From Acidobacteriota bacterium (GTDB taxonomy: Bacteria; Acidobacteriota; UBA6911; RPQK01; JAJDTT01): DNA of 64,000 nt. The stretch is from the NCBI GenBank assembly GCA_965209055.1, contig OZ242374.1, positions 3,328,001 to 3,392,000 of the forward strand, in the 5' to 3' direction. The translations under genes and the position numbers were made by a program. Positions within the stretch are counted from its first letter, which is position 1. Each line of letters opens with the position of its first letter. Shown piece by piece: positions 31,448 through 64,000 of the stretch. The notes beneath the pieces are model-generated. The model was not told the DNA's origin. It made no database searches and saw nothing but the letters and a program-made list of their open reading frames with translations.

Positions 31448-31488
31448 CGCCTCACCGCGATCATTCCGAACCTCCCGGAGCCTTGAAC

Positions 31489-32736: not shown

Positions 32737-32766
32737 GGGCCGTGACTGAACCGCGGCAACAAAAGG

Positions 32767-33540: not shown

Positions 33541-33601
33541 GAAGCCGGAATTCCGGGTATTCAGCAACCAGGACCAAGCGGGACGGCCCGCGCGGAGTTC
33601 G

Positions 33602-46100: not shown

Positions 46101-46383
46101 GAGCTTCCGGTTTCCTGCCGCCCACTGGAGGGGGGACTGTTAGTCCCAACTGTCCCTAAGTCAAAGACTACCGAACATTAACGTTTTCAATTATTTACCG
46201 GGTTCTTCGCCGAATCGGTAAAGTGGTTGACTCTCCATGTTTGACATGCTGAACAGGCAACAAACAGGCAGCCGAATCGGTTCCTGAAAGCCGACGCGCC
46301 CTTTTTCCCTCTTCCGTTGCCTGGCTCAGAGACATTATCGAATGGGCTTTGCCGACCGTTGGTCGTCACCGGAGGACTCTGCC

Positions 46384-46748
46384 TGAGGCCGAAGGTGTCT
46401 GACTTCGAATGGCTCGGCATTCCCAAGAATCGGCATCCCCGGCCAGTGTACTACGGCGCGGTGGGGAAGACCCGCCGCTACATGGCGTTCAAACTGCCGA
46501 TTGCCTTCGAGGCGACCCGGACCATCTTCGTCCGTGTCGATCCGGGGCACTCGACCGACCAGGGCCTGCTCAACTCCTACGGCGGGGTGACGGCCGCCTT
46601 GAAGCGGGCGGTCGAGTTGCAACCAGCGGCGGAAGGCCGCTCCTTCCAGGTCGTGATTGACGGTGAACGCACGTGGCAGTCGCAACGGCTGATGGAGGCT
46701 CGTTTCGGCAGTGCGAAAAGAGGGTCTCGCGCCCGCTCCGGGATGTGA
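46384..46748 (+). pseudogene. 5'-truncated relic of an uncharacterised ORF family ('orfX'), copy A
   Basis: FEWLGIP..HPRPVYYG..GKTRRYMAFKLPIA..RTIFVRVDPG aligns with 50057-50410. Its tail SYGGVTAALKRA aligns with 50830-50925(-). Confidence 0.6.
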
Positions 46749-46996
46749 ATGGGACAAAGGGGGTGGATTCACAAAAAGCGGTTCCGGTGACTCACAAATC
46801 CGTCTCCCCCGATCCTTTGTCGTTTCAATCAGTTACGGACCCATTTCCGGCCACCGGGTGGCCGCACGGGGAAAATGGAGGTGGACGGGAGCGACCCCCC
46901 CTTTTTGCCGCCCGGTGCGGGCGCGGGGGTGCTGCGCAATTCACATTTGCGCAGCACCCCCTGGGGGGGTCGCTCCCGTCTCAATTATCCTAGCGG
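46738..46996 (+). repeat. Structured repeat copy 1 (nested hairpins)
   Basis: Perfect 18-bp inverted repeat (46884-46901 / 46963-46980) enclosing a perfect 15-bp hairpin (46925-46961). Homologous to 49758-50025(-) and 50446-50724(+). Confidence 0.88.
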
Positions 46997-47444
46997 ACTG
47001 TTTCTATAAAGTCCGTAAACCATAATATATAAACGAGTTATGAAAATTCTACCACCGCTCTTCCCCCCATTCTTTCCACCGGGTTGAATTGGATGTCTTT
47101 GGCCCTTCGTGGCCGTGAACGGACGTACCCGTTCGGCCAAGCCGTGGAAGAGCGGTCGGTCGGCATCCTCGCCGCAGTGATCAGATCCTGTCGGGTTGCG
47201 GTCGTGCTTGAACCACTTTTCGCGGCGGAAAGACCTCCCTGGGAAAGGATAACGGCAGGTGATCGTCGGCCGCAAAGTCCTTACGCGGCACGCGATCCGA
47301 CCGCATCGTTCCGGACGCCATGGGTCACCTTATCCGCTCCGTGCCTCCACCCCGTCGGAGGTGGAAGAGTGGCGCTTCGTCAGATGCTCGCCCTCCATTG
47401 AGCGCGAGGCCGAAGGTCCGGCTCAGGAAGTCGATCCCCACGGC

Positions 47445-47630
47445 TTGACCGAACGGTTACGCGTTCAAGTCCTCCGTTGCGAAGACCCGGCGGCGTTGGC
47501 CAACGGCAGATGGAGTTGGCGGCAACGCTGGGCGATCGTTACGACCACACGAAGATCTCCCATGTGGAGAAGCGACACTAGGCACTGCTACTGGATGGGG
47601 CGGTTAAGGCAACGCGCGAGTTGAAGAAAA
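47445..47630 (+). pseudogene. Degenerate XRE-family HTH regulator
   Basis: QMELAATLGDRYDHTKISHVEKRH*ALLLDGAVKATREL with an internal TAG at 47579-47581. Confidence 0.55.
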
Positions 47631-48049
47631 TCGAGGAGGAGTGGCCGGGTCTCAACTACGGGCTGACGCGGGGCATCCTCATTGTCGAGCCATCCGCACC
47701 TTCGGTTCTCTCACTCACCCAGTAGGCGGCGCGGTACTTTCCACATCCCCCAGGGACTTTTCGTACCAATGCCTAGAGTTTTCTTCTCTTCACTTAGTGC
47801 GGCCTGGACTGTAACGGGGAGTTCCAACAGACTGACCGGGAGCATGAAGCGAAAGAACGAGTCACAGCTAGTGAGTGACAGTCGAGGACTTCTACCGGAG
47901 TTGCCTCCAAGCGCGGTTCGCGGGTTGGTAAGGGGACGGATCGCTGGTGGGAAAAAGCGTGCGCCTCTCTGAGATCATCTTACGGACGGAAAGGAAAAAG
48001 GGAACTATACAAGCCTGTTCGAGAACCAGATTGGACACAGGGGGAGAGA

Positions 48050-48958
48050 ATGACCACTGAGCTTAGACACCTAGAACCTGTCGATCTCCGAGAAGTTTGG
48101 CCTGACGAAAAGGTAGATTTCACTCCTTGGATCGCCGCCAACCTCGAAGTGCTGAGGAGTCCACTGGGAATGGAACTGATAGACCCGGTGCTGGAGCGGC
48201 CAGTCGGTCACTATCAGGCGGACATTGTTTGCAGGGAAGTCAAAACTAACGCCACGGTGGTGATTGAGAATCAACTGGAGCCGACTGATCATGATCATCT
48301 CGGCAAGCTCATCACCTACTCAGCGGGGTTGAAAGCTGACATCAGCATCTGGATTGCCAAGAAATTCAAACACGAACATCATGATGCGCTCCACTGGCTG
48401 AACAAGACCAACGGCGACAAGGATCAATTCTATGGCATCGAGGTCCACGTGCGGTCGAACGAAGATTCGTACGAACCGAAGTTTGTCAAAGTCGACCTCT
48501 CGAAACCCGCACGACGCCCACAGTCATCGCAAAAAAAACGTTACGAAGAATACGGGAGTGCTCTTAACACGTTTCTCAAGTCCAAATTCCCGGACGGACC
48601 GTGGAAGGGTATGACGGGGGGCAATATGGAATACACTGCAGGATACCCTGGGAAGAAATCTGGGGGGCCGTTTGGATTGACCGTAATGCCAAACAAGCCG
48701 GAGCACCGTGTGCGGGTAAAGGTATGGGGTCCAAAAGAGCATTTGCGCCGTCTCAAAAGGCGAGAGGAACTCAACAGGTTAGACGGCTTGAAGTGGGGAC
48801 CCCCAAAGAAGTCCGAGGGGAATTTCCACTGCACCCTTCCCGCTGATCCGAAAGAGAAGTCGGATTGGTGCCGGCAACACAAGTGGATCGCGGACTGTCT
48901 GAATAAAATGCATGAGGTATTCCTCCCACTCGTAAAAGAACTGATCCGTGGCGATTAG
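48050..48958 (+). CDS. DUF4268-type protein with N-terminal NucS-like PD-(D/E)xK nuclease domain
   Basis: VDLREVWPDE..DFTPW, ADIV..VVIENQL..TDHDHLGKLITY motifs. Confidence 0.8.
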   Translation: MTTELRHLEPVDLREVWPDEKVDFTPWIAANLEVLRSPLGMELIDPVLERPVGHYQADIVCREVKTNATVVIENQLEPTDHDHLGKLITYSAGLKADISIWIAKKFKHEHHDALHWLNKTNGDKDQFYGIEVHVRSNEDSYEPKFVKVDLSKPARRPQSSQKKRYEEYGSALNTFLKSKFPDGPWKGMTGGNMEYTAGYPGKKSGGPFGLTVMPNKPEHRVRVKVWGPKEHLRRLKRREELNRLDGLKWGPPKKSEGNFHCTLPADPKEKSDWCRQHKWIADCLNKMHEVFLPLVKELIRGD

Positions 48959-49013
48959 AGGAGGCGAAGATCCCGAGAATGGCTCACAGTCGCAACGGGC
49001 TTCCAGGGAAGTA

Positions 49014-49289
49014 CTATTTTCCAGTAATCACCCAGTCCAGGAACTTGTTGAGCAGGACCGCGAGGCTGGCGATCGTGATGCCAGCCTTCCACATCTTGGA
49101 CTCAAGAGCGGTGGTGGAAACCTGTAGGTCCGCTTTGACCTCGACAATCTCGGCCTTTACAGCGGCCACATCCTCCTTGGTGGCCAACTGGTCGCTGATC
49201 GGAATAGCACTAGCTGCGGCCCGAGCCTTTGACTCTGGCGCACCGGCAGCTACCAGCGCGTCATAGACTTCACTCACCATGACTCCCAT
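49014..49289 (-). CDS. Small coiled-coil membrane-anchored protein (DUF1640-like)
   Basis: EVYDALVAAGAPESKARAAA..LATKED, coiled coil, C-terminal TM, GGAGG RBS. Confidence 0.7.
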   Translation of the reverse strand: MGVMVSEVYDALVAAGAPESKARAAASAIPISDQLATKEDVAAVKAEIVEVKADLQVSTTALESKMWKAGITIASLAVLLNKFLDWVITGK

Positions 49290-49333
49290 GAGCTTTCCTC
49301 CAACTCAGCCCAGTTTACCTTCTCGCCGATAGA

Positions 49334-49731
49334 TCATGCAGCATCGGAAGGCCGTCCAGAGGTGCAGACCAGGACGAAATCTTCCCGGCGCTCAACGACT
49401 TCCAACACGGTGGCGGACCAAGTGCCCCGCCGGCGCGTCGGGGTTTCGATGTGGCACCCAGCCAAGTTCTTGGGGTGCTTGCCCGGGTTGCCCCGGTAGG
49501 ATGAACTCCAAAAGCCATACCCTTCATTTGTTCGGCCTGGACCGCGCGAAGCGGCGAGCGGACCCAGGCGCCGACGTTCACATTGCGTTCCGACTTCAGA
49601 CATTCCGGGGCTCTATCCAGATCGTCGTCAAGGCGGTATTCATCCTTCAAGCGTACCACAGTGGCACCTGTAGCCTGTGGTGGTACATAGATGATTTTGT
49701 CGTGGGGGAATTGGACGTCTTCGATGGCCAC
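49334..49731 (-). pseudogene. Hypothetical protein, probably frameshifted
   Basis: Protein-like N-terminus in one frame (MAIEDVQFP...GAWVRS) and protein-like C-terminus in another (GTWSATVLEVVER...). Confidence 0.4.
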
Positions 49732-49757
49732 AACCGGGCTTCAGGAATCTCCTCAGG

Positions 49758-50025
49758 GGCCTTCCCGCAGGGATCATTAGGACGGGAGCGACCCCCCCAG
49801 GGGGTGTTGCGCAGATGTAAATTGCGCCACACCCCCGTGCCCGCGCCGGGCAGCAAAACGGGGGGGTCGCTCCCGTCCACCTCCGCTTTCCCCGTGCGGG
49901 CGCGGCGAAGCCGGGAATGTGGCCGGAACTGCATGAGCGACAAAGAGATCGGGGAAATCGGAGGTGTAAGTCAAAAGGCTTCCGGGATGTAACTCGCGTC
50001 CTTTGTCTCCCTTACACCTCCCGAT
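49758..50025 (-). repeat. Structured repeat copy 2 (inverted relative to copy 1)
   Basis: 49781-49899 matches the reverse complement of 46862-46980 with about 11 mismatches. Weaker similarity continues to ~50025. Confidence 0.88.
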
Positions 50026-50056
50026 CGACACCGGGAAGCCCTTTCGCCTCCCCATG

Positions 50057-50410
50057 AACCTCGTCGATCCGCAGGTGACGCAGCTGTCGCAGGCGCTGCA
50101 GGCGCTGGGCCTTTCCCGGCGGCTGTTCCCGTGCCGCCACTATGCCGGCCATGCCCAGGGACGGAGCCGGTACTTCCCCCGCAAGCTCCCCCTGGCCCTG
50201 GAGGAGGACCGGGCGACCTTCGTCTATGTTGGTCCCGGCCGGGACACCGACTCGGAACTGCTCTCGTTGGGGGTGCGGAGCACGCCCGGCTCTGGACCGC
50301 GCTACGCGCACAAGACCATCCGGTTCACGTGGTCGCGGTGGCCCGCGACGACCTCCGCCGGGAGCGGGCCGGGAAGGTCCTGCGGCGCTGGGCCAGCCCG
50401 AGTCCCAAGG
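50057..50410 (+). pseudogene. 5'-truncated, frameshifted orfX relic, copy B
   Basis: LQALGLSRRLFPCRHYAG..GRSRYFPRKLPLALEEDRATFVYVGPG, then a frameshift to AEHARLWTALRAQ..VHVVAVAR. Confidence 0.6.
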
Positions 50411-50445
50411 CCGTGTTCCACCTCCGGGGGCCTGCCCGGCGAAGT

Positions 50446-50724
50446 CCCGGGATGTGAAACACACATGGGGGGGTGTGTTCCACTCTCGGAGCGGCGAGTG
50501 TTACACGCTCCCTTTCCGCCATCCTGTTGAGCCCCTTCGGTTTGTCCCCGCCCTCCGGGAGGAGGCGCGCCCGGACGGGGAGTCCGGGTAGGAGAAGTGA
50601 GCGACCCCCCTGTTTTCGTGCCTCGCACGTCACGCAGGCGCTGCCGGTGTTCCACTCCGTTGCACACCGGCGCGGCATGCGCGGGGGGGTCGCTCACTTC
50701 TTCATCGATCCCTGCGGGAAGGCC
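50446..50724 (+). repeat. Structured repeat copy 3 (divergent, structure conserved)
   Basis: Starts CCGGGATGTGAA like copy 1. Perfect 18-bp IR (50593-50610 / 50684-50701), inner hairpin 50643-50671, ends GATCCCTGCGGGAAGGCC like copy 2. Confidence 0.8.
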
Positions 50725-50829
50725 TCTGCGAAGATCGGGATAGGGAGAATTCCAGCCTGTCGTGAGAAAATGCGCCGCATGGGAGAGGACAACGGAAACT
50801 TGCAATGGGAGGCAAAGCAAGCGGCCAGG

Positions 50830-50925
50830 CGCTTGTCGATGGTCACCTCGACGGCGCGACCGGTTGCCAACGGTTCCAACCCGATCGCCCGCTTCAGCGC
50901 GGGCGTCACCCCGCCGTAGGAACCG
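50830..50925 (-). pseudogene. orfX C-terminal relic, copy C
   Basis: SYGGVTPALKRAIGLEP..GRAVEVTID, versus SYGGVTAALKRAVELQP..GRSFQVVID in copy A. Confidence 0.6.
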
Positions 50926-51209
50926 AGCCGCGTGTGCTGGATCGCTGACGGAAACGCGAGGAACCTCCACTGGGTGGTGCAGAGTTCGCAGACCACAAAA
51001 CGGACTGCGCCCGTTGGTAGGAATCCCCGCTCCGGCAACGCCTCGCGGTGGATCCTGGACGATGTCCAATGGCCTATCCCCAACCCTTGGTCCGGCCTCG
51101 CCAAGCCAACACAGGCCATATGTTGCGGTCCGGATTATGTGGCGGACAGTCCGTATCATCCTGCTGCACGTGAGAACACACCGTATCTCAGCAACATAAT
51201 CTCCTTCAC

Positions 51210-52205
51210 TCAGAGCGCGGCCAGGAAGGCGATCAGTCCCGTGTTTGTCCTCCACGGGCGATCCGAACCGGGCTCGGCGGCATCGCAGAGCGCCATGGCC
51301 CTGGCCTTCATCTCCAGGTCGATCTCGGCGTAGATGTTGGTCGTATCGAGGCTGGCATGACCGAGCCAAGCGCGGATCGTGTTCAGATCGATGCCGGCCT
51401 GGAGCAGGTGGCAGGCGCTGGTGTGACGGATGGTGTGCGGCGTGACCCTCCTTCCGGCGAGCAACGGGACGCGGGCTGCAGAGCGCTCGACGAGCCGATA
51501 GACCCCGAACCGGGTATAGGACCTGCGCTGCCGGCTGAGGAAGACGGCATCCCCGGCTGCCCGTCCCTGCAAGAGTTCCGTGAGCGCGGCTTCGGTCCGG
51601 GGCCACAGCGGACACTGTCGGTGTTTTCCGCCCTTGCCGTGGATGTTGACGAGCGCTTGCCCGCCGCCGCGTCGTCCGATTTGCAGATCGCCCGCCACGA
51701 GCTGAGTCGTTTCGGAGACGCGTGCCCCGGTGTTGTAGAGGAACAGGAGCAGGGCGTGTTCGACCCGGCCTCTCGGCGTTCGCCGGTCCGGGACCTCGAG
51801 CAGTTCCTTCATCTCGGTCTTGCTGAGCCAGCCGATCGGCTTCGGCGCGGCCTTCTTCGAGGCAATCGCACGGATACTGCCGCTCCACTCGATACGTCCG
51901 GGATCGCGGCTGGCGATGAAGCGTGCGAAGGCCCGGATCGCCGATAGCCGCTGGTTGCGGGTCTGCACGGAGCAACCGCGGTCCTGCTCGAGATAGTCGA
52001 GGAACTGGCGCACGTGCCGGGCCGTGAGGTCCTGCACCGCGATCCGTTCGACTGGCTTGCGGGCCTTGGCGCCGACGAACGGCAGCAGGAGTGCGAAGGT
52101 ATCGCGGTAGCTCTTCTGAGTGTTGCGGGCGAGGTTGCGCTCGGTGACGATGTAATCGGCCAGGAAGCGGCGCAGCCAGGGGCCGAGCGTGCGGGGATTA
52201 CTCAT
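51210..52205 (-). CDS. Tyrosine recombinase RitC
   Basis: TGARVSE, GKGGK, HTIRH and LGHASLDTTNIY motifs. Confidence 0.93.
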   Translation of the reverse strand: MSNPRTLGPWLRRFLADYIVTERNLARNTQKSYRDTFALLLPFVGAKARKPVERIAVQDLTARHVRQFLDYLEQDRGCSVQTRNQRLSAIRAFARFIASRDPGRIEWSGSIRAIASKKAAPKPIGWLSKTEMKELLEVPDRRTPRGRVEHALLLFLYNTGARVSETTQLVAGDLQIGRRGGGQALVNIHGKGGKHRQCPLWPRTEAALTELLQGRAAGDAVFLSRQRRSYTRFGVYRLVERSAARVPLLAGRRVTPHTIRHTSACHLLQAGIDLNTIRAWLGHASLDTTNIYAEIDLEMKARAMALCDAAEPGSDRPWRTNTGLIAFLAAL

Positions 52206-53151
52206 GGTTTCCTCCTCCGTTGACGTAGGCGTCGAAACGGACCGAAGCCTGATGCAGGAGTTCGGGCGTCATCGACAGATAGATCCGGGTGCCGTTGAGA
52301 TCCGTGTGGCCGAGCCAGGTGGATAGCGTCGGCAGCAGTCGCTGGACATCGGCGCCCTGCCGGTACCAGGACTCCAGCCGGTGTACGGCTGCGGCATGGC
52401 GCAGGGAATGAAAGCACGGACCTCGCCGTCCGTCGTTGCGACCTTCGATTCCGGCCTCCTTGAGCAGCTTGGTGAACGCGTGCGCGGCGGTGCTCTGGGC
52501 CAAGGGCGTCCCGTCGCGGTTGGCGAGGAAGGTCGAGGCCGTGCCCTTGGGGAAGGGGCGTTGTGCGCGCCGGGCGGCATAGGTCTTCAGCGCGTCGGCA
52601 AGTTGCCGGCAGACGGGAACGAGGCGGGTCTTGTAGAACTTGGTGTGACGTATGGTCAGCAGCGCATCGGGCAGGTCCACATCGTCGAGGGTCAGGCGCT
52701 GGGCCTCGCCGAATCGCAGCCCCGCACCGTAGAGAAGCTGGAGCAGTGTCCGCAGGGTATCGGCGTCGATCTGGATCGAACGTTGCCGACTGACATCGAT
52801 GGCGTCGAACAGGCGTTGCAACTCGTTGCGGGAGTACACGTAAGGTGGTGAGGACCGCGGTCGAGTCGGCTCTTCATCGCGCGCCGGAAGCGGCGACCGG
52901 GTCACGTAGCTGCGGCTGATCGCGTAGCGGTAGAAGCCGGCCAGGACGCTGTACTTGTTGGCCCGGTACCGGGTTATCGGACCTTGACCGGCAAGGAAGT
53001 CGAGAACGTGGGCTGGGGAGACGGCATCACAGCCGGCGCTCCCGCCGACCTGTTTCAGGAACCGGTGCAACAAGTATGCGCCGGTGTCGAACTTGGCGCC
53101 ATGGGCCTGACGCCAGGCGATATAGTCGTTGACCGCATCCCGGAGCATCAT
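52198..53151 (-). CDS. Tyrosine recombinase RitB
   Basis: GLRFGE, TKFYKTRLVP, HSLRH and LSTWLGH..TRIYL motifs. Confidence 0.93.
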   Translation of the reverse strand: MMLRDAVNDYIAWRQAHGAKFDTGAYLLHRFLKQVGGSAGCDAVSPAHVLDFLAGQGPITRYRANKYSVLAGFYRYAISRSYVTRSPLPARDEEPTRPRSSPPYVYSRNELQRLFDAIDVSRQRSIQIDADTLRTLLQLLYGAGLRFGEAQRLTLDDVDLPDALLTIRHTKFYKTRLVPVCRQLADALKTYAARRAQRPFPKGTASTFLANRDGTPLAQSTAAHAFTKLLKEAGIEGRNDGRRGPCFHSLRHAAAVHRLESWYRQGADVQRLLPTLSTWLGHTDLNGTRIYLSMTPELLHQASVRFDAYVNGGGNHE

Positions 53152-54380
53152 GTCAGGCCCTCAAGATCGATGTCGGCGACCTCACGGAGGGTGCTGAGGT
53201 TCACCTTGGCGTACACGGCGGTGGACGAGGTGCTGCGATGGCCGAGGTAATCGCCGACCTCCTTGATCGACAGGCCGTGGTCGAGCAGGTGCTGGGCGGC
53301 AGCATGACGAAGCGCATGGGCACCGCGACGTTTGCCGGTGATACCGAGCTGATCGAGGCGTGTCCTGACGACGTTCGAAACTGTCTGCCGGGTCACCGGA
53401 CGGATCGGAGCGATCAGAGTGAGGAACAGTGCCCTCTCCGGGCGCAAGGCACGAACCTCGGTGAGGTAACGCACGATCGACTGCCCGACGCCGCGGGAAA
53501 GCGGATAATGATGGGGGCATCCCGACTTGGGGCGGCGTACCCGTAGCGTCTCCTCTTCCCAGTCCAGATCATCGAGGAGCAGGCCGGCGACCTCGCGGGC
53601 ACGCAACCCGTACGCGATCAGCACCATCAGGATGGCACGGTCGCGAAGGTCGGCCGGCCGGTTGCCCTCGGAGGTTGCGAGCAGGCGGAGCACCTCGCCC
53701 CGGTTGAGTCCCTTCGGGAGTGTCTCGCCGGGATGGAACCGCACCGGCATGATCCCGTCAGCCAGCCCCAGTGTACACCAGCCCTGGCGTTCGGCGAACC
53801 GGGAAAAAGTGCGCAGACGCTGCCCGTAAACGCGGACCGTGCTCCGACTGCAGCCACGGGCGTGCCAGCGCATGACCGCCCGGTCGATGTCGGCGACAAC
53901 GACCGCATCCAAGGCAATGCCCCACTCGCCGAGCTAGTCGAAGAAGCAGTCCATCGTATGGCAGCAAGTACGGATCGTCACCTCGGACCATCCGCGCTCT
54001 TTGCGCATCCACTCCTTGAAGATCGTGGCCTCGGCGACGTGGGCGTGCCGTTGCCGCACCCTACAGGGCTCATCGAGCAGACCCGCGAAGCGTAGCCATC
54101 GCACTGCGCGGCTGACGAAGATCCGGCGCACCCCCGGTCGCGCCGAACGACACGGTCGACGGTCGGTCGCCGCCTCGATCCGGGGCAGGCTGACGCGCTC
54201 GCCTGCCCGCAAGTCCAGAAGACGAATCAGGGTGATCTGAGCCGCTGCGATCGTGCGTAATGTGAGCGGTCGCGCGCCCTCCTGCGCGCAATGCCTCAGG
54301 TAGCTCAACCGTTCTTCCAACAACGGTTCGCAGCGATAACGGCCTATCGTGCCGCGGTCGATGAACAGGGCCTCGAACAT
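53148..54380 (-). pseudogene. Tyrosine recombinase RitA interrupted by one in-frame TAG
   Basis: ORFs 53934-54380 and 53148-53912 share a frame: FFD*LGEWGIALD. GLRARE, HALRH and LGH..TAVY are intact. Confidence 0.88.
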
Positions 54381-54522
54381 GATCGTGCCTCCTTGTGGGG
54401 TGAAGACATGATTATGGTCGAACGACTTCCCGTCAGATAATTATGTTGCTGAGATACGGCGTGTTCTCATGTGCAGCAGGACGATGCAGACTGTCCGCCA
54501 CATAATCCGGACCGCAACATAT

Positions 54523-54554
54523 GGCCTGTTATGTGGCACTCAACATAACAGGCC
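54523..54554. other. Perfect 12-8-12 palindrome at the RIT end (candidate recombination site)
   Basis: GGCCTGTTATGT-GGCACTCA-ACATAACAGGCC. Confidence 0.7.
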
Positions 54555-54674
54555 AAATGGCGGGCTTGTTTTTTCGGTAGTTCTCGATGATTGCGCCTGA
54601 GTGGGTTTCAGGCGGCATATCGGCGGACCATGGCTCCGCGCAGGACTTCAAGCTGGCGCTCTACGCAAGGCGGA

Positions 54675-55898
54675 TCAACGGAGCCGGACGGACGCCCGAG
54701 GCCGACTCTCGTCGGCCAGATAGCCCGCCCAGTTGTCCATGAGACGCCTCCGCCGCTCGAACAGGTCCGTCCTCCGGTAGGCCGCCTCGACCGGATTGCG
54801 CACCTTGTGCGCCAAAGCCGCCTCCGCCACCTCGCGCGGATGTTCCGTCTCCTCCGCCACCCAGTCCCGGAAACTCGACCGGAACCCGTGCGGCACCGCC
54901 GCGATCTTCAACCCCCGCAGCAGGTCCGACATGGCCGTATACCCGATGGGCTTTCCACCCACCCCCGGAAAAACGAGTGGGCTGCCGCCAGCGAGCGCCC
55001 GCGCCTCCTCCAGGATCTCCAACGCTCGCCGGGCCAACGGAACGCGGTGCTCCCGATTCACCTTCGTCCGTGGGGCCGGGATGGCCCATACTCCTTCCTC
55101 CCGGTCGATCTCCTTCCACGCGGCCCCACGGACCTCGCCGGAGCGTGTCGCCGTCAGGACCAGGAACTCGAACATCAGCTTCAACATCGGCCGCTTGTTC
55201 GATGCCCGCACCGTCTGGAGTGCGGACGCCACTTCACCGTGAGGCAACGCCCGCATGTGACGCACGGCGGTCCCCTGCGAGCCGAGTACCGGACCGATCC
55301 GGTCGCAGGGGTTGTCGGGCCGAAGATCCATCGCCACGGCCCACTCCAGAACCGCGCGGATGCGCTGGCGCAGCTTCCGGGCCGTGGCGGCCTTCTCGTG
55401 CCAGATCGGAGCCAGGATTCCGATCACGTCCGCGCTCGTCACCTGCGCAATCGGTATCTTCCCGATATGAGGCAAGACGTAGCGCTCCAGGCTCCACAGC
55501 CAGAGCCGCGCATGCCGGGGGGAGCGCCAGCCCGGCCGCAGCTGCTTCCAGACCGCCCCAGCGGCGTCCGCGAAGCTGGGCATCGACTCGGCCCGCCGGT
55601 TCGCGGCCCGGGGGTCGCCCCCGTCGCGGGCCAGCTTCCGGTTGGCGAATGCTTTCTCGCGCGCTTCCTTGAGCGAGACGAGGGGGAATCCACCGAGCCC
55701 GAGCTCGGTTCGCCGGCCCCGGATGGTGAGGCGCTGGATCCAGCCCCGGCTCCCTGTAGGCCGGACGTAGAGGTAGAGGCCGTGGCCGTCGCAGTATCGT
55801 CCGGACTGGCTCACGTTGCGGACAAAGGCCGGGGTCAGGGCATTGAGGGGATGCGGCCCGCGCGGCTTGCGTTTGGGAGGTTGTTTCGGGAATCTCAT
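54675..55898 (-). CDS. P4-like tyrosine integrase with arm-binding domain
   Basis: DGHGLYLYV...LGLGGFPLVSLKEAR N-domain, TATRSGE, HGFRSSFRDW, LAH and AAYRR motifs. Confidence 0.95.
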   Translation of the reverse strand: MRFPKQPPKRKPRGPHPLNALTPAFVRNVSQSGRYCDGHGLYLYVRPTGSRGWIQRLTIRGRRTELGLGGFPLVSLKEAREKAFANRKLARDGGDPRAANRRAESMPSFADAAGAVWKQLRPGWRSPRHARLWLWSLERYVLPHIGKIPIAQVTSADVIGILAPIWHEKAATARKLRQRIRAVLEWAVAMDLRPDNPCDRIGPVLGSQGTAVRHMRALPHGEVASALQTVRASNKRPMLKLMFEFLVLTATRSGEVRGAAWKEIDREEGVWAIPAPRTKVNREHRVPLARRALEILEEARALAGGSPLVFPGVGGKPIGYTAMSDLLRGLKIAAVPHGFRSSFRDWVAEETEHPREVAEAALAHKVRNPVEAAYRRTDLFERRRRLMDNWAGYLADESRPRASVRLR

Positions 55899-56357
55899 AC
55901 CTACCACTATATATACCACAATATGGTGGATGCAAGGGGATGAAGCGGGTCGGTATGGGACAAGGTCGGATGTCCGATCTAGTTGTAAACCAATCATAAA
56001 CAAACACTTATGGACAATACTGGACTTACCTGGACGATGCACCTGATTAAATCTAGGCTTCCTAGCGGGAAGGCTCCAATAGGGCTACTCTGGCAATCTG
56101 TGTAGTCAATCCTCTATGAGCCAGCGCAGGCCATCGGTCTTGCCGATCTGGGGTGGAAAGTGGATCTGGTTGAACGCTCGATCCGGAATGGGAACCAGGA
56201 CCTCGTCGAAGCGCTGGAGCAGAACGCCGATAGACAAGTGAGACTATTTGACCTTGCCGTTCGGTAACGAATTGCAAAAGGTCCAAGTGATACTCCACCT
56301 TGCTCCGGTCGGCCAAATTGGCCAAGATTGACGTTTGCCATCAACTGTAGGAGTGGC

Positions 56358-56542
56358 ATGCGGAAGCCGAGCGCGAAAGACGCGAAGTACGGCTTCGGCC
56401 GACGCATCGGCCTCGCCCGCGCCGCGCCCGTCACGGTGACCAAGCACGGGCGGTTATCGTGGCGCTCTTGGTCGAGGAATACGAGCGCCTGAAGGCGCTT
56501 GACACACCTGAGGCACGCTCGGGAACGGAGGAACGGGAATGA
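56358..56542 (+). pseudogene. Frameshifted Phd/YefM antitoxin upstream of hsdR
   Basis: AGGAG RBS. MRKPSAKDAKYGFGRRIGLARAAPVTVTKHGR, then a shifted frame [17 protein letters not shown]. Confidence 0.75.
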
Positions 56543-56573
56543 CGTGGAACAGAACGGGAGGCCGCTGAGCCGG

Positions 56574-58898
56574 ATGGACAAGCGAGGCCTCTCAGAGCGT
56601 GACATCTGCACGAAGTTCATCACGCCCGCTCTGCGCAACGCCGGGTGGGACGAGATGTTGCAGATTCGCGAAGAGGTGAGCTTCACCCAGGGCCGGATCA
56701 TCGTGCGGGGCAAGCTGGTCGCACGCGGCAAGGGGAAACGCGCCGACTACATCCTTTATCTCAAGCCAAACATCCCGATCGCCGTGATCGAGGCGAAGGA
56801 CAATTCCCACAGCCTCGGCGACGGCATGCAGCAGGCTCTGGATTACGCCGAGATCCTGAACGTTCCCTTCGCGTTCTCTTCGAACGGCGACGGCTTCGTG
56901 TTCCACGACCGTACGGGGGCCAGTACACCGCTTGAGTCGGACCTTTCTCTTGAAGACTTTCCGTCACCCGCCGATCTGTGGGCGCGCTATCGGGCCTGGA
57001 AGGGCCTGACGCCGGAAGCCGAGGAGATCGTCCTTCAAGACTATTTCGAAGACGGCAGCGGCAAGACGCCGCGCTACTACCAAGTCAATGCCATCAACGC
57101 GACAATCGAGGCCATCGCCAAGGGGCAGAACCGTATCCTGCTCGTCATGGCCACGGGCACGGGCAAGACCTATACCGCCTTCCAGATCATCTGGAGGCTA
57201 TGGAAGGCGCGCCGCAAGAGACGCATCCTGTTTCTCGCCGACCGCAACGTGCTCGTCGATCAGACGATGACGAACGATTTCCGCCCGTTCGGCGGCACAA
57301 TGACCAAGCTCTCGCGCCGGATCGACCCGGCGTACGAGGTCTATCTCGGCCTCTATCAGGCAATCACCGGACCGGAGGAACGCCAGAAGACGTACCGAAA
57401 GTTCTCACCGGAGTTCTTCGATCTGATCGTGATCGACGAATGTCACCGGGGCAGTGCTGCCGACGATTCGGCGTGGCGCGAGATCCTTGAGTACTTCTCT
57501 GCCGCAACCCAGATCGGTCTCACCGCCACGCCGAAGGAGACGAAGTACGTCTCCAACATCGCCTATTTCGGGGAGCCGGTCTTCACTTACTCCTTGAAGC
57601 AGGGCATCAACGACGGTTTCCTCGCGCCCTACAAGGTGGTCAAGGTCCATATCGATCGGGACGTGGAGGGCTACCGCCCAGAGAAGGGAAAGGTCGACCG
57701 CGTCGGCGAGCCAGTTGAGGATCGCGTTTACAACTTGATGGACTTCGACCGAACTCTGGTCATCGACGAACGGACGACACTCGTCGCGCAGAAGGTCACG
57801 GCTTTCCTGAAGGAGAGTGGCGATCGTTTCCAGAAGGCGATCATCTTTTGCGTCGATCAAGAGCACGCCGCGCGGATGCGTCAGGCGCTGATCAACGAGA
57901 ACGCGGATCTCGTCGAGGGCAACTCACGTTACGTCATGCGGATCACCGGTGGAGATACTTTGGGACAGGCCGAACTCGGGAACTTCATCGATCCGGAATC
58001 GAAATACCCCGTCCTGGTCACCACATCGCGCCTGCTGTCCACCGGCGTCGACGTCCAGACTTGCCGGTTGATCGTGCTCGACCGAGCAGTGGGGTCGATG
58101 ACCGAGTTCAAGCAGATCGTCGGCCGCGGTACCCGCGTGCACGAAGACACACGAAAGTTCTACTTCACGCTCATCGACTTCCGGGGGGCCACGGGTCATT
58201 TCGCGGACCCGGACTTCGACGGCGAGCCGGTCCAGATTTACAGGCCGGAGGAAGACGGTCCGATCGCGCCACCCGATGGGCCGGATCCCGGCCCGAACGG
58301 GAACGGCGACGTAGATCCACCGCCGGGGCCACAGAAGAAAATCTATGTCGATGGCGTCGAAGTGGCCATCGTCGCTGCCCGGGTGCAATACCTCGACGGG
58401 CACGGCAAGCTGGTGACGGAGTCGTTGCGTGATTTCACGAGGAAAGCCCTGCGCCGGCGCTTCGCGAGCCTTGACGACTTCCTGAACCGTTGGAACGCCG
58501 CAGAGCGCAAGCAGGCAATCATTGATGAGATGGAGGCCGAGGGCCTGCCGCTGACCGTGATCGCCGAAGAGTTGGGCAAGGATCTCGACCCCTTCGATCT
58601 CGTCTGTCACATCGCCTTTGACGCCAAACCGCTGACCCGCCGCGAGCGGGCCGAGAATGTCAAGAAGCGGGACGTGTTCGCGAAATACGGAGGTCAGGCC
58701 CGCGCTGTGCTCGATGCGTTGCTCGACAAGTACGCGGACGAGGGCATTCTCAATCTCGACGACGCCAACGTCCTTAGAATCCCGCCACTCGACCGACTCG
58801 GTACACCGTTGGAACTGGTCCGCGCCTTTGGCGGGAAGCCCGGTTTCGAGCGGGCCGTGCACGATGTTCAATCCGCCCTCTATCGCGAGATCGCCTAA
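56574..58898 (+). CDS. hsdR: Type I restriction endonuclease subunit R (EcoAI/EcoEI-like, type IB)
   Basis: [22 protein letters not shown] nuclease, [20 protein letters not shown] and QIVGRGTR motifs. Confidence 0.95.
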
Positions 58899-58901
58899 GA
58901 G

Positions 58902-60353
58902 ATGTCCGTCAGCACGCTCGTCAAGTCGATTCAGAACATCATGCGCCAGGACGTGGGCGTCGATGGCGATGCGCAGCGCATCAGTCAACTGTGCTGGATG
59001 TTCTTCCTCAAGATCATCGACGATCAGGACCAGGAGCTCGAAGTTCTAAAGGACGGATACCGTTCGCCCGTACCTGACCCATTGCAATGGCGGAGTTGGG
59101 CCGGCGACCCGGAAGGCATCACAGGCGAGGAGTTGCTCGACTTCGTCAACGGCGATCTCTTTCCGAAGCTGAAGGAACTTCCGCGCAGGGCCGGCCCTCG
59201 CGCCAGCGTCGTGCGCGACGTGTTCGAGGACGCCTACAACTACATGAAGTCCGGCCCGCTGCTGCGGCAGGTTGTCAACAAGATCAACGGAATCGACTTC
59301 AACAACCTGACCGACCGGCGGCACTTCGGCGATATCTACGAGCAAGTCTTGAACGATCTGCAATCGGCCGGCAATGCGGGCGAATACTACACGCCACGCG
59401 CCGTGACCTCGTTCATGGCCCAAATGATCGACCCGAAACCGGGCGAGACCCTGCTCGATCCGGCGTGCGGCACTGGCGGGTTCCTCACCTGCGCCATCCG
59501 TCATATGCACGAACGCTACGTGAAGCGGACCGAAGATGAGGCAAGGATGCAGGCCTCCCTGCGGGCCATGGAGAAGAAGCCACTCCCCCACATGCTCGCC
59601 GTCACGAATATGCTCCTGCACGGCATCGAAGATCCGTCGTTTCTGCGCCACGACAACACACTGGCGCGCCCCTACATCTCTTGGGGCCGGGACGACCGCG
59701 TGGACATCGTGTTGACCAATCCGCCGTTCGGTGGCAAGGAGGAGGACGGCATCGAATCGAACTTCCCGAAGCACTTCCAGACGCGCGAGACGGCTGACCT
59801 GTTTCTCGCCCTGATCGTCCGACTTCTGAAACCCGGCGGCAGGGCTGCCGTGGTCCTACCCGACGGCTCCTTGTTCGGCGAGGGTGTCAAGACGCGGCTC
59901 AAAGAGCACTTGATGAGGGAATGCAACCTTCACACCATTGTGCGCCTGCCGAACTCGGTGTTCTGTCCCTACGCTTCGATCGGGACGAACTTGCTGTTCT
60001 TCGAGAAAGGCGAACCGACCAAGGATGTCTGGTTCTGGGAACACCTCGTACCTGAGGGCCAAAAGGCCTATTCAAAGACCAGACCCATCCGGCTGGAGCA
60101 TCTTGAGGACTGTGCCGCTTGGTGGGGCGGGGCGGAACGTAAGAGCCGCGAGGAAGGTGAACGAGCTTGGAAGGTGACTGCCGAGGAGATCGCTACGCGC
60201 GGCTACAACCTCGACATCAAGAATCCTCATACCGAAGAAGAGGACCTTGGCGATCCCGAGATGCTACTGGAGGAGCTGACGCGTGCCGAGGCCGAGGTGA
60301 ACTCAGTGCGAGACCAGTTGAAGGGAATCCTGACAGAGGCGCTGTCACGGTGA
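58902..60353 (+). CDS. hsdM: Type I RM N6-adenine methyltransferase subunit M
   Basis: GEYYTPR, DPACGTGGFL and NPPF motifs. Confidence 0.96.
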   Translation: MSVSTLVKSIQNIMRQDVGVDGDAQRISQLCWMFFLKIIDDQDQELEVLKDGYRSPVPDPLQWRSWAGDPEGITGEELLDFVNGDLFPKLKELPRRAGPRASVVRDVFEDAYNYMKSGPLLRQVVNKINGIDFNNLTDRRHFGDIYEQVLNDLQSAGNAGEYYTPRAVTSFMAQMIDPKPGETLLDPACGTGGFLTCAIRHMHERYVKRTEDEARMQASLRAMEKKPLPHMLAVTNMLLHGIEDPSFLRHDNTLARPYISWGRDDRVDIVLTNPPFGGKEEDGIESNFPKHFQTRETADLFLALIVRLLKPGGRAAVVLPDGSLFGEGVKTRLKEHLMRECNLHTIVRLPNSVFCPYASIGTNLLFFEKGEPTKDVWFWEHLVPEGQKAYSKTRPIRLEHLEDCAAWWGGAERKSREEGERAWKVTAEEIATRGYNLDIKNPHTEEEDLGDPEMLLEELTRAEAEVNSVRDQLKGILTEALSR

Positions 60354-62089
60354 ATGCTGACCGCCTATTCGCCCTATACGACCGCGTAGCCGAGGCACCG
60401 GACGCCATTGGACGTCTGCGCCGCTTCGTGCTGGATCTCGCCTTGCGGGGAAAGCTTGTGGAGCAGGATCCGGCAGATGAACCGGCATTGGGACTGCTGA
60501 ACCGGATTGATGAGGCGAATGATCCACTGGCAGGATTCAACCGGGCTAAAAAATCACGAGCACTACCACCGATAAACCCGAGGGAGGTCCCTTTCGAGTT
60601 ACCATCAGCCTGGCAATGGGTGTATTTCGGGAACATCGTCGATTTTTCCGCAGGCCGGACGCCCCCACGGAAAGAACCATCGTATTGGAATACCGGTGAT
60701 TTCCCATGGATCAGCATCGCCGACATGGAGGACGGAAAGACCCTTCGATCTACGAAGGAGACTGTGAGCACCGAGGCCCGTCTCAACGTCTTTAAGCGTG
60801 AGCCGGAGCCACCCGGCACAATGATCATGAGCTTTAAGCTCACAATTGGAAAGATCGCCAAGCTGGGCATCTCCGCGTTTCATAACGAGGCAATTATTTC
60901 CATTCGGCCACATGTCGGTGACCTAAACTCCTACCTATTCAAGGTTCTACCTGATCTTGCACGGGGCGCCAATACCAAAGGAGCAATCAAGGGCGCAACG
61001 CTTAACCGTAAGTCACTTTTGACCATAATGGTCCCGCTCCCGCCTCTCGCTGAGCAGTGCCGCATCGTTGCCAAGGTCGATGAACTCTTGGCGGTTTGCG
61101 ACCAGTTGGAGAAAGCACGCACCGCGCGGGAGGACACCCGCGACCGGCTCACCAAGGCCAGTCTTACCCGTCTAGTTGCTCCCGACATCGACGCCCCGAC
61201 GTTTCGTTCTCACGCGCGCTTTGCCGTCGATGCCCTGCCCGCACTGACCGCTCGTGCCGATCAGATCAGGCATCTACGCCAGACGATTCTTGGCCTCGCC
61301 GTGCGGGGGAAGCTGGTGGAGCAGAATCCGGCGGACGAACCGGCGGACGAAATACTGGAACGGATCGCGGCAGAAAAGGTACGACTGTTGAGGGCACGAA
61401 AGATCAGGAGACACAAATCAACTGCATCGTTGTCACGAATAGAATCGGATTTTGGACTACCGAGTGGTTGGGCGGCAGCAAGGTTCTCGGATGTCGTGAC
61501 TGAGTTACGAACCGGACCCTTCGGCAGCTCCCTTCACCGGAGTGACTATGAAAAAGGCGGAACACCCGTCATCAATCCTGCATCAATACAGGATGGGAAG
61601 ATTGTTCCTTTCGAGAATATGGCGATAGGGGACGATACTCTTGAGAGACTCGCAACGTTCAAACTCCGCGCCGGTGACATCGTGATGGGCCGTCGTGGCG
61701 AAATGGGACGCTGCGCGGTGGTAGAACAGAGCGAGGAAGGTTGGCTCTGTGGGACGGGAAGCCTGATTCTCCGTCTTTCGAATAGCCTCTATCCAAAATA
61801 CCTAGCAATGCTCATCGGATCGCCCAATTTTCGGGAAAATCTTCGAGGTCATTCTGTCGGCGCTACAATGCAGAATCTGAATCAGTCCATTCTGTTGAAG
61901 ATGAGCATTGGTCTACCACCGCTCGCCGAGCAGTACCGCATCGTTGCCAAGGTCGATGAGTTCCTAGCGCTCTGCGACCGCCTAGAGGCCCGTATCACTA
62001 CCACAGATGGCACCCGCCATCGTCTCCTCGGAGCCCTTCTGCATAATGTGCTGGCATCAAACACGAAGCCGCGTCCTCTTGGAGGCTAA
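60350..62089 (+). CDS. hsdS: Type I RM specificity subunit S
   Basis: GTGA overlap with hsdM. Two TRDs, each followed by LPPLAEQ.RIVAKVDE. Repeated LA.RGKLVEQ.PADEPA. Confidence 0.93.
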   Translation: MNADRLFALYDRVAEAPDAIGRLRRFVLDLALRGKLVEQDPADEPALGLLNRIDEANDPLAGFNRAKKSRALPPINPREVPFELPSAWQWVYFGNIVDFSAGRTPPRKEPSYWNTGDFPWISIADMEDGKTLRSTKETVSTEARLNVFKREPEPPGTMIMSFKLTIGKIAKLGISAFHNEAIISIRPHVGDLNSYLFKVLPDLARGANTKGAIKGATLNRKSLLTIMVPLPPLAEQCRIVAKVDELLAVCDQLEKARTAREDTRDRLTKASLTRLVAPDIDAPTFRSHARFAVDALPALTARADQIRHLRQTILGLAVRGKLVEQNPADEPADEILERIAAEKVRLLRARKIRRHKSTASLSRIESDFGLPSGWAAARFSDVVTELRTGPFGSSLHRSDYEKGGTPVINPASIQDGKIVPFENMAIGDDTLERLATFKLRAGDIVMGRRGEMGRCAVVEQSEEGWLCGTGSLILRLSNSLYPKYLAMLIGSPNFRENLRGHSVGATMQNLNQSILLKMSIGLPPLAEQYRIVAKVDEFLALCDRLEARITTTDGTRHRLLGALLHNVLASNTKPRPLGG

Positions 62090-62103
62090 ATGCATGCAAA
62101 TGC

Positions 62104-62415
62104 ATGGCCTACGAGGACACGGAGGGCGGACTACGACTACGGCACCAATGTGCATCACAAGCTCAAGCGGAAAGAGTTGGCCTACGCCCACCTATCGACT
62201 TCGTTGGTTACTTCAAACGGGAGAACTGCCACGCCAGAAAGGAAATCTGGAGCGAAGCCTCTCCGGACGGTCGATGGCGCGCCTACTCGCTGGAAGCCCT
62301 TCTTCGACGAGATAAGACTAGCCTCAAAGTGTTCTGCCTGAAGGACCTATCCATGACCGATCTGGAGAACCTTCGCTCTGCGCAGAGCAGCTTCGAGGCG
62401 GTGAGAGAAAATTAG
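62104..62415 (+). pseudogene. Frameshifted C-terminal relic of a second, different hsdM
   Basis: Across frames it reads YDYGTNVHHKLKRK.L / DFV....EN.HARKEIWSE..PDGRWRAYSLE.LLRRDKTSL..F.LKD.S.TDLENL, resembling HsdM C-termini. Confidence 0.6.
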
Positions 62416-62470
62416 GATCGCGCAATGCGCTGCTGGATGGATGGCACCCTTCCCTGACACACCGAACGTG

Positions 62471-63025
62471 TCAGGTTATCGATGTTGGTGGAACACGCTG
62501 CGGCGGCCGGAAAGCACTCCTGAGTTGCCAGGCAATTGCCATCATGCGGTATTTACGGTTTTGGGCTCCTGGTTCGATATCCAAGTTTTGGCAGATATCG
62601 GCGTGAAAGATATTCTCGGCGATGCCGGAGTCATAGACACAGAACAGCCGTTTTCCGCCTTTCCGCAATTTCCGGACATCTTTGGTGTAGGTTGCGATGA
62701 ACTGCAAATAGCCGTTGTACCGAGGGTCGATGCATTTGCTTGACTTTAGGAGCTCGGGACTCATCAGGAGCACACGGTCAACGGAGAACCCCTTGGTTGC
62801 GGGCTCGGGGCGAAAGTACACGGGCTTCACGTGCCCGTCTGGACCGATATGGTGTTCTCTGAATAGAGTGCGCACGAGCACCTCACTATCGGCCACTGGA
62901 CCAAGCGAGTACTCACTGACGGATTCGCGTTCACAAGCGCAGTCAGGAAACCTCTCGCGGTAGCGAGCGCACTTGCAGTCGTCTTGGCCATACTCGGTCT
63001 CCAACTCCAAACAGCTGCACGACAT
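62471..63025 (-). CDS. Hypothetical protein, Cys-rich N-terminus plus possible RES/ART-like core
   Basis: Start MSCSC 13 nt after the upstream stop. Motifs EVLVR, GFSVDR, CVYD and NIFHADI. Confidence 0.6.
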   Translation of the reverse strand: MSCSCLELETEYGQDDCKCARYRERFPDCACERESVSEYSLGPVADSEVLVRTLFREHHIGPDGHVKPVYFRPEPATKGFSVDRVLLMSPELLKSSKCIDPRYNGYLQFIATYTKDVRKLRKGGKRLFCVYDSGIAENIFHADICQNLDIEPGAQNRKYRMMAIAWQLRSAFRPPQRVPPTSIT

Positions 63026-63038
63026 GACGATAGCGGAC

Positions 63039-63752
63039 TCAGGTGGGATCTTGTATGCGCAGGATTCGCAGCATGTCGTCCGGCCAAGGGTCGGTCGCAT
63101 CCACGCCGTCATTGCCGCACTTCTCAGCCACAGCTCCAGGCACTCCATGAACGGCGAAGTATGCATACGTGCCGTCGCCCTCGAAGGTCACCTCGGCGAA
63201 TACGTGTGCATGCCGGATATCCCAGTACACACCGACGTCCCCTTCGGCACCTTCCTCCGGGTAGGGCAATGGAATGTCGCCAGGCCTGCTGTCTAGGAAG
63301 GTCAAGGCGTCGTTTACCGCCTCTTGCGACGGTGCCTTAGCGCCGTCTCCGTCCCAGTTGTCATCCAATTGCGCATAGGAGACGAGTTCTTGGCGGAGCT
63401 TGGATTCGGCGTCAGAGGTGAATGAGGTCCAGCGGCCCGCCTCGCGGCTCTTTCGCGCACGGAGTGCTGTCGAGATCTTCGGCTGAGCATACCATGTCAG
63501 AGCTGATCGTCGTGAATCAACTTGGACATCTGGCTTGACGCAAGCTTCGCGGAACCGCCTCGCCCAAGAGTGCTCGGATTCTCCGGGCGTGGTCATGACG
63601 ATACAGGTACCTGGTATTGTTTCTACCAGAGTAGACAACTCCCCGACGGCAGGAGGCAAGGAACGCTCCACTAATCCATTGGTCAACGTAGATCTCCTAT
63701 CCTGCTCTTGGACCCGTCTTGATCGAGGTGATTGCAGGTTTGCTCTCGCCAA
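63039..63752 (-). CDS. Hypothetical protein with LDDNWDGDGAKAP motif (start uncertain)
   Basis: C-terminal half reads L.DNWDG.GA..PS..A...A..FL...P.P....GDVGVYW...EVTF.GDG. Confidence 0.65.
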   Translation of the reverse strand: MARANLQSPRSRRVQEQDRRSTLTNGLVERSLPPAVGELSTLVETIPGTCIVMTTPGESEHSWARRFREACVKPDVQVDSRRSALTWYAQPKISTALRARKSREAGRWTSFTSDAESKLRQELVSYAQLDDNWDGDGAKAPSQEAVNDALTFLDSRPGDIPLPYPEEGAEGDVGVYWDIRHAHVFAEVTFEGDGTYAYFAVHGVPGAVAEKCGNDGVDATDPWPDDMLRILRIQDPT

Positions 63753-63999: not shown

Positions 64000-64000
64000 C

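Follow-up and report, generated by a model that had tools for sequence, protein, structure and literature searches.

Integrases of the P4 family usually act at the 3' ends of tRNA or tmRNA genes, a common but not obligatory target. IS1111-attC insertion sequences and group IIC-attC introns insert in the attC hairpins of integrons. Streptococcal IMEs (integrative and mobilizable elements) also occur inside conserved genes of ICEs (integrative and conjugative elements), according to PMC5704250. The locus described here lies in a window of 64,000 nt (the whole stretch of DNA analysed; positions 3,328,001 to 3,392,000 of contig OZ242374.1, assembly GCA_965209055.1) from an Acidobacteriota bacterium whose 6.08-Mb genome is a single contig. 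Window positions 46997-56068 are a discrete 9,072-bp insert, named E1; other copies of its family in this genome are numbered E2 onwards. E1 is very probably a P4-like integrase element that integrates at a motif beside a conserved hairpin and carries target sites of its own inside. Much of this had been proposed in a preliminary description made from the DNA letters. The features on which the argument rests are as follows.

46997-56068, minus strand (that of the integrase): E1, 9,072-bp integrative element including the right copy of the 9-bp repeat, delimited by paralogous empty sites, family junctions and a backbone comparison with nine other copies
46884-46980, no strand: hairpin copy 1, three-way in shape, with a perfect 18-bp outer stem and two inner hairpins, one small and one long
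46981-46996, plus strand: target motif TCAATTATCCTAGCGG, with the attL core repeat TCCTAGCGG at 46988-46996
46997-47460, no strand: left arm (P' arm), AT-rich, beginning with ACTGTTTCTATAAAG, conserved in 12 other left ends and at loci L099 and L100
49760-49973, minus strand: hairpin unit copy 2, inverted, hairpin at 49781-49877, a backbone part kept in nine other copies
50594-50722, plus strand: hairpin unit copy 3, hairpin at 50594-50700, motif TTCATCGATCCCTGCGG at 50701-50717, GAAGG at 50718-50722, kept in other copies
54675-55898, minus strand: P4-like tyrosine integrase, 407 aa, open, with Pfam domains Arm-DNA-bind_3, Phage_int_M and Phage_integrase
55899-56068, no strand: right arm (P arm), with the attR core TCCTAGCGG at 56060-56068; its blocks are kept in 10 copies in the genome and at eight loci from other phyla

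Borders of E1 and its integrase

E1 is an insert because its left and right flanks are contiguous, with the motif intact, at two paralogous loci (genome ~2190509 and ~4730653). These empty loci read ATCCCTGCCGG or ATCCCTGGCGG, then GAAGGCTCCAATAAGG; the joined flanks are ...GGGTCGCTCCCGTC-TCAATTATCCCTGCCGG-GAAGGCTCCAATAAGG... at one and ...CAAATTATCCCTGGCGG-GAAGGCTCCAATAAGG... at the other, and homology extends 4.4-5.3 kb at both. At E1 itself (a caret marks the break) the left flank reads ...GGGTCGCTCCCGTC-TCAATTATCCTAGCGG^ACTG and the right flank ...TCCTAGCGG^GAAGGCTCC. The left TCCTAGCGG is preceded by hairpin copy 1 and a spacer, TCAATTA. Flanking direct repeats of 9 bp and paralogous empty sites are the marks of a P4-type element. 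E1 interrupts an outer integrative element (OE, described below), and only one of three paralogous OEs with the same cargo contains it.

The window has exactly two copies of the repeat TCCTAGCGG, at 46988-46996 and 56060-56068, where the preliminary description had placed it. Taken alone this 9-mer is weak evidence of an element, because its one-mismatch matches in the window (13) are about as many as expected (~15). The same description took the joined flanks to be colinear with hairpin copy 2. Its reading of the flanks was right, but copies 1 and 3 share one orientation and copy 2 has the opposite one. Copy 2, at 49747-49877 as read on the minus strand, and copy 3 both read hairpin-...ATCCCTGCGG-GAAGGCC; on the minus strand, the copy 2 motif ...ATCCCTGCGG ends at 49765 and GAAGG occupies 49764-49760.

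Logan contigs from four runs contain a joint from 46990 to 56066 with CTGC between. It was rejected as an excision product, since it equals the paralogue at genome 2190509. Two further joints, an inversion at 47125/47460 and one from 50717 back to 47053, are each explicable by other copies.

The integrase matches PF13356 (2.2e-18), PF22022 (8.5e-25) and PF00589 (1.6e-15), and its NCBIfam match to PRK09692 is below the cut-off. Its translation has intact boxes TATRSGE, HGFRSSFRDW and AAYRRTD, which we take to be the catalytic R, H-x-x-R and Y boxes. The domain trio and the readable boxes bear out the P4-like assignment made beforehand. The start codon, an ATG at 55898, lies 162 bp from the right repeat, against ~160 bp estimated earlier. 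E1 probably owes its insertion to this enzyme, and the position of strand crossing is predicted from sequence.

AT-rich segments lie inside both ends of E1. The left arm carries GTAAACCA..ATAAAC..GTTATG, with TACCAC at 47050-47055 and TTCCAC at 47074-47079. In the right arm TACCAC stands twice at a 12-bp interval (55902-55907 and 55914-55919); GGTGG in inverted orientation (55925-55929), GGATGCAAGGGGA, ACACTTATG and two TGGAC lie there too. The TACCAC-like repeats of ~12-bp period noticed from the letters could be read in both arms. Right-arm blocks conserved across phyla are CATACC.ACCA.TATA, GGATGCAAGG, ACACTTATG and the two TGGAC. The arm repeats are probably binding or accessory sites for the integrase.

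The element family, its targets and nesting

The family has 13 left and 10 right ends in this genome. All 13 left junctions are of the form ..GG^ACTR (12 read ..GG^ACTG and one ..GG^GCTG), and the 10 right junctions all lie at one fixed distance from the integrase, each with ..CGG or ..CCGG as its end. Complete elements have direct repeats of 7-12 bp, all inside CC(N)NGCGG(ACTG): TCCTAGCGG in E1, CCTTGCGG in E3, CCTGCGG in E2, and CCCGGCGGACTG in E9 and E10. There are 16 integrase matches, six of them in a second clade of 63-66% identity and 10 close; nine of the 10 close copies (80-100% identity) are open.

Six of the 13 left ends adjoin the ~100-nt hairpin, as expected from the earlier claim that the target lies beside a structured repeat; the genome has ~72 hairpin-motif sites. 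Five other left ends form a subgroup whose target is a second repeat, a near-perfect palindrome of ~165 nt, entered at CCCGGCGG^ACTGCG; one of the five elements has the opposite orientation. Exact empty copies of this palindrome occur at least five times elsewhere in the genome. The subgroup occupies genome 571510-580245, 2474513-2485350, 4956963-4968745, 67985-83994 and 3838580-3848413, and its repeat resembles a miniature inverted-repeat transposable element (MITE) or a REPIN, a doublet of repetitive extragenic palindromic (REP) sequences.

Close relatives of the integrase (74-89% identity) are encoded in metagenome-assembled genomes (MAGs) labelled Acidobacteriota, Gemmatimonadota, Longimicrobiales, Versatilivoraceae, Palauibacter, Gammaproteobacteria, Aminicenantes and Latescibacterota. 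At 28 of 41 close-homologue loci there is a junction 156-167 nt away from the start of the integrase. Eighteen loci have the type CC..(C/T)(G/C)GGAAG, 17 of them with a CGG^GAAG or TGG^GAAG break and L022 counted through the approximate match CCGTCCCGGAAG; eight have CCCCGCGG^GAA(C/T)G, and two have the palindrome, the second target. Left ends are directly abutted by the hairpin arm and motif at L099, from a second Acidobacteriota species (hairpin-ATCCCTGCGG^ACTGTTTCC), and at L100, from Longimicrobiales (...GGGGGTCGCTCCCGGGCCAATGATCACGG^ACTG, followed by a recognisable left arm). Mapping the att sites of homologues had been named as a check on whether they abut the hairpin. The shared junction and the two abutting hairpins agree with it, but the sister subgroup uses a different palindrome.

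A tRNA gene stands beside the integrase at none of the 41 close and none of 19 more distant homologue loci, so the finding that was to overturn the first proposal, homologous integrases sitting at tRNAs, did not appear when looked for. E1 likewise has no adjacent tRNA, as first noted: the sole tRNA gene of the window, tRNA-Ser at 26464-26536, leaves none within 20 kb. That gene opens a region (26464-34549) of lower GC (0.57-0.62) with large open reading frames (ORFs), which may be a separate island.

Elements of the family are nested in one another. E3 (genome 1598860-1608686) lies inverted within E2 (1583524-1610675), exactly at the copy 2 motif of E2, and its flanks are collinear with the intact copy 2 site of E8. 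A left end at genome 3152670 adjoins a copy 3-type hairpin in a larger element with one right end, which would fit nesting followed by deletion between the two integrases. Internal copy 2 and copy 3 sites have been used for nesting at least twice in this genome, in keeping with the idea that two extra sites permit it. Downstream of the second-clade integrases are hairpins spaced 0.6-0.9 kb, with a C-terminal integrase remnant between them. Such hairpin arrays with remnants would be the expected footprint of repeated integration and decay. Arrays of two to three second-clade sites lie at genome 2675775-2679000 and also at ~1064784, 2971044, 816809, 468744 and 184605.

The simplest reading of these data would be ordinary attP x attB recombination by a P4-like integrase. 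The excised circle would carry an attP composed of the right arm, a core (T/G)CC(N)NGCGG and then the left arm, which begins with ACTGTT, with repeated TACCAC/TGGAC-type sites in the arms. These repeats and the GTAAACCA..ATAAAC..TTATG blocks would act as arm or accessory sites. The integrase would recombine attP with a chromosomal ATCC(C)TNGCGG^GAAGG, and strand exchange inside the shared CC(N)NGCGG block would leave a 7-9-bp direct repeat flanking the insert. Since an integrase element carries two hairpin copies, each insertion would add two new landing sites. Elements would then nest or line up and later decay, piling defence cargo into islands.

Cargo, host element and hairpin module

The E1 backbone has four parts. 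After the left arm (46997-47460) come variable cargo, then a 1.4-kb block (49758-51122) that contains hairpin copies 2 and 3, and then the integrase together with the right arm. The integrase is the sole backbone protein of E1, and no replication or mobilisation gene was recognised among the E1 proteins. Other features inside E1 are listed here.

47124-47461, no strand: 340-bp segment between 24-bp inverted repeats, orientation varying among copies
48050-48958, plus strand: cargo gene for PDC-S11, a candidate anti-phage defence protein of 302 aa (PADLOC PDLC04911, E 1.7e-65)
49014-49289, minus strand: small ORF, 91 aa, no family above cut-off
51111-54547, minus strand: nested recombinase-in-trio (RIT) element, 3,437 bp, terminal inverted repeats at 51111-51200 and 54440-54529

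The cargo of E elements is defence genes. The PDC-S11 candidate has weak OapB/DUF4268 matches in Pfam, and E2 has Upx, a SIR2-like PDC-S65 and a type II restriction-modification (R-M) pair. The 340-bp segment near the left arm is collinear with E1 in E6 and E8 and inverted in E2, E3, E5 and E10, which suggests a site-specific inversion switch.

The RIT element lies between hairpin copy 3 and the integrase. It has three adjacent tyrosine recombinase genes (51210-52205, 52198-53151 and 53148-53912), giving three Phage_integrase (PF00589) matches, inside terminal inverted repeats of 90 nt with 94% identity, the arrangement that defines the class. It is precisely missing from other E copies, and contigs connect 51110 to 54548. 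With it, all three levels of nesting seen in the preliminary description (outer island, integrase element, RIT) are confirmed. Directly upstream of the first RIT recombinase, which has 254 aa, an ORF of 148 aa with no family (53934-54380) may represent the N-terminus split from it. RIT pieces with 5/476 and 10/863 letters differing are present in X1, a run whose label names a different study.

The OE that holds E1 extends on both sides of it.

46127-46996, plus strand: left part of OE, left end GGAGGGGGGACTGTTAGTCCC..., ~870 bp and apparently non-coding, ending in hairpin copy 1 and the motif
56069-64000, plus strand: OE continuation, GAAGGCTCC..., then type I R-M cargo
56499-58898, 58902-60353 and 60167-62089, plus strand: OE cargo genes hsdR, hsdM and hsdS (type I R-M)
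65514-66656 (window-equivalent, beyond the window): OE recombinase, 380-aa Xer-like tyrosine recombinase

OE ends ~2.7 kb past the window (genome 3374127-3394746; L091:1-4746). The repeat family of its left part has unique upstream flanks; its right module has ~30 copies by DNA, and its recombinase has 26 protein matches. The OE ends have a common 15-nt repeat, GGGACTGTTAGTCCC, and the right end is similar to a tRNA's 5' half, as far as the anticodon loop. In sister species the two chromosomal flanks of OE are adjacent, an empty orthologous site. This site and the Xer-like recombinase establish that the host is another mobile unit, as the first reading held. OE is inserted in the loop of a REP-like hairpin, since the flanks in genome G001 are joined via a terminator-like hairpin, GGAGCGGGGACTGTTCGTCCCCGC. 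The recombinase scores 60.5 bits with integron-integrase models, against a cut-off of 265 bits.

Insertion sites of the OE family are loops of REP/terminator-like hairpins (GGGGGACTGTTAGTCCCC and two other variants), and at L108 (genome G003, one sister species), in the region orthologous to window ~46100, the empty OE site holds a tandem array of ~30-nt REP-like hairpin units (GGGAGGGGCGGTTTTCTTGCCGCCCATT...). The string GGACTGTT is found at the left end of the integrase elements (window 46997-47004), in the OE att core (46133-46147) and at the 3' terminus of the 165-nt palindrome (genome 1238500-1238522). This recurrence may be the trace of a common anticodon-loop-like ancestral target, or a coincidence.

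The hairpin folds as DNA into a three-way shape (-59.7 kcal/mol, z = -9.3), with the motif 6-7 nt 3' of it. Its GGGAGCGACCC core and GGGTCGCTCC do not vary in any of the 23 sequences compared, which come from this genome and others. The outer stem has compensatory pairs (GACG/CGTC, GATG/CATC, GAAG/CTTC, GGAG/CTCC and GCTG/CAGC), and the inner arms have entirely different sequences with pairing retained, the structure being kept across phyla. The hairpin is under structural selection.

No Rfam family matched the hairpin at gathering score, and at E <= 1 the best match was a chance-level plastid untranslated region. ARAGORN called 2 of ~72 hairpin units tRNA-Val-like (genome 3841235-3841319 and 5203736-5203820). 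These calls are probably false, if curious given that tRNA genes are the normal targets of this integrase family, and the hairpin was not accepted as tRNA-like or as a known RNA family. The 870-bp unit was rejected as coding: substitutions have no 3-base periodicity, Pfam is negative, and the outer-element units hold no integrase remnant. The one match among viral contigs falls within a coding region, lacks the motif and is due to chance. Integrase relatives on plasmids are all below 60% identity, the best at ~45%.

The hairpin-motif module occurs only inside mobile DNA. All its copies can be assigned to mobile elements, with two per E element, two to three after each second-clade integrase and one per outer element. 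Genomes G001 and G023, which do not have the outer recombinase, have 15 and 11 hairpin matches alongside 5 and 2 P4-like integrase matches, and at Gemmatimonadota loci the motif and hairpin directly follow the integrase stop codon. The integrase elements therefore have at least as strong a claim to the module as the host unit has. The proposal that E1 parasitises the site of another mobile unit stands as far as OE is mobile, but the module is also backbone of integrase elements across phyla. A wider idea, put forward tentatively, is that the module is a portable landing pad (attB) carried by integrative elements of at least three recombinase lineages in several phyla. With the P4-like integrases, whole self-integrating defence elements, and not cassettes, would be captured in an integron-like manner, two pads being added per capture, with recursive island growth, and the hairpin would be active in site choice or transfer.

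Alternative readings and comparison with known systems

Several observations weigh against the integrase-element reading. Neither an excised circle nor a locus-specific empty site of E1 was seen in the assembled contigs of the four runs. Of the empty site and attP junction proposed as a check, the first was obtained as joined flanks at two paralogues, but the attP joint is absent among the 15 contig joints listed. An excisionase was not found among the E1 proteins, and the small ORFs near the left end matched no family. Between 12 and 13 of the 41 homologue loci have no recognisable junction, and several have truncated integrases. Two left ends (genome 4519745 and 6060630) stand at ..GCGG without either repeat. 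The attP core has no adjacent hairpin, which may therefore be dispensable. Away from hairpins, 96 occurrences of a loose form of the motif were counted, and sequence alone therefore does not fully explain site choice, though this regular-expression count is too permissive for testing site preference. One integrase copy has two stops, the E copies differ by about 10% in DNA, with a range of ~8-20%, and the insertions may be old. The divergence, the broken integrase, the unpaired ends (13 left, 10 right) and the missing excision signal would also suit inert relics, left by ancient bursts or by homologous-recombination copying of composite blocks and not by ongoing site-specific integration. Such relics are possible but doubtful, since flanks vary among copies with several downstream classes, a single one of the three paralogous OEs is occupied, nearly all close integrases are open, and the identical junction recurs in other species and phyla. 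These points show that integration took place many times independently, whatever the present activity.

The hairpin itself may be recognised by the integrase. Recognition could even depend on structure, the integrase acting on an extruded or single-stranded hairpin in which the stem-base motif is one half-site. Integron integrases act in this way on attC, and XerCD on the CTX phage. Both target classes are long palindromes (the three-way hairpin and the ~165-nt near-perfect hairpin repeat), the motif pairs with a mirrored CCGCACGGGG across the hairpin, and the stem co-varies around the invariant core. This mode of recognition is nevertheless unlikely for E1: the two GCGG sites and the attP core have no hairpin, the target at L100 seems to retain the 3' arm alone, and by Pfam the protein is an ordinary arm-binding P4-like integrase, a class that acts on duplex sites.

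A hairpin followed by a conserved motif is also the layout of an origin of transfer (oriT). The hairpin with ATCC(C)TG.CGG could be an oriT whose nick site lies a few bases to the 3' side, so that elements target the nick region and hitch-hike on conjugation between phyla; the motif may resemble the IncP-type nick consensus. The module is common to otherwise unrelated elements (E, the second integrase clade and OE), integrase-only elements are spread at 74-89% identity over MAGs of several phyla, and defence cargo lies directly on the GAAGG side; if true, this reading would explain all three. There are precedents in streptococcal IMEs that integrate in the nic site of an ICE oriT (PMC5704250) and in oriT-only islands with defence genes near oriT (10.64898/2026.01.13.699239). 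The machinery of conjugation argues otherwise and makes an oriT quite improbable. The VirD4-type coupling protein (PF02534) was found in none of 31 related genomes and the MOBP relaxase (PF03432) in two, one without the hairpin and the other matching it weakly; neither is among the nine genomes of the genus, all of which carry the hairpin. Searches of this genome for MobA/MobL, TrwC and VirB4 (PF03389, PF08751 and PF03135) found none, and a search of 72,556 plasmid records did not find the hairpin. A search for Y1 transposases of the REP-associated (RAYT) type gave two weak matches, unrelated to the repeats.

In E1 a P4-like integrase lineage has departed from tRNA genes to multi-copy structured repeats in mobile DNA, a target harmless to the host. 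Nesting followed by decay offers a concrete and testable route for the growth of defence islands. Because MAGs of several phyla have this integrase (at 74-89% protein identity), its junction and the hairpin in common, the system marks recent gene flow between distantly related bacteria. The integrase and its ~16-bp site are a candidate integration tool with a defined attP and attB, and the hairpin is a conserved structured element now open to assay.

The streptococcal IMEs, as described in PMC5704250, are similar in using a conserved site of another mobile element as attB and in forming elements within elements. They differ in that the module targeted by E1 is an oriT only as a candidate and conjugation genes were not found in this genome; the hosts here are non-conjugative recombinase elements, and the hunter, E1, has the site within itself. 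The arrays with remnants seen here resemble those from tandem accretion of ICEs, IMEs and cis-mobilizable elements (CIMEs), but in that process (PMC5357655 and PMC5704250) the incoming element uses a resident attL or attR at a chromosomal gene, whereas the E1 family uses dedicated internal sites and is truly nested. Integrons share with E1 a tyrosine recombinase, hairpin-associated sites and the stacking of cargo. E1 has no IntI-type integrase and no attI or attC, and the stacked units are whole elements with an integrase, not promoterless cassettes. An integron identity was rejected, the E1 integrase being P4-like and the units between hairpins integrase remnants. IS1111-attC and group IIC-attC elements resemble E1 in homing to the structured repeat of another genetic platform, but they use a DEDD transposase or a reverse transcriptase and have no integrase, attP or cargo.

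No description of the element, the hairpin or the target was found in the literature searched, apart from supplements, where att-site tables are possible. E1 is closest to the P4 family (DUF4102/Arm-DNA-bind_3; satellite phages and genomic islands) in its domain set, catalytic boxes, integrase next to attP, short direct repeats and repeated sites in AT-rich arms. The enzyme class is thus known already, and the behaviour is like that of the streptococcal "hunter" IMEs and of tandem accretion. E1 differs from the P4 family in its target, which is not a tRNA or tmRNA 3' end but a motif at the base of a conserved three-way hairpin confined to mobile DNA. This target is new, as are the carriage by the element of two copies of it and the cross-phylum range.

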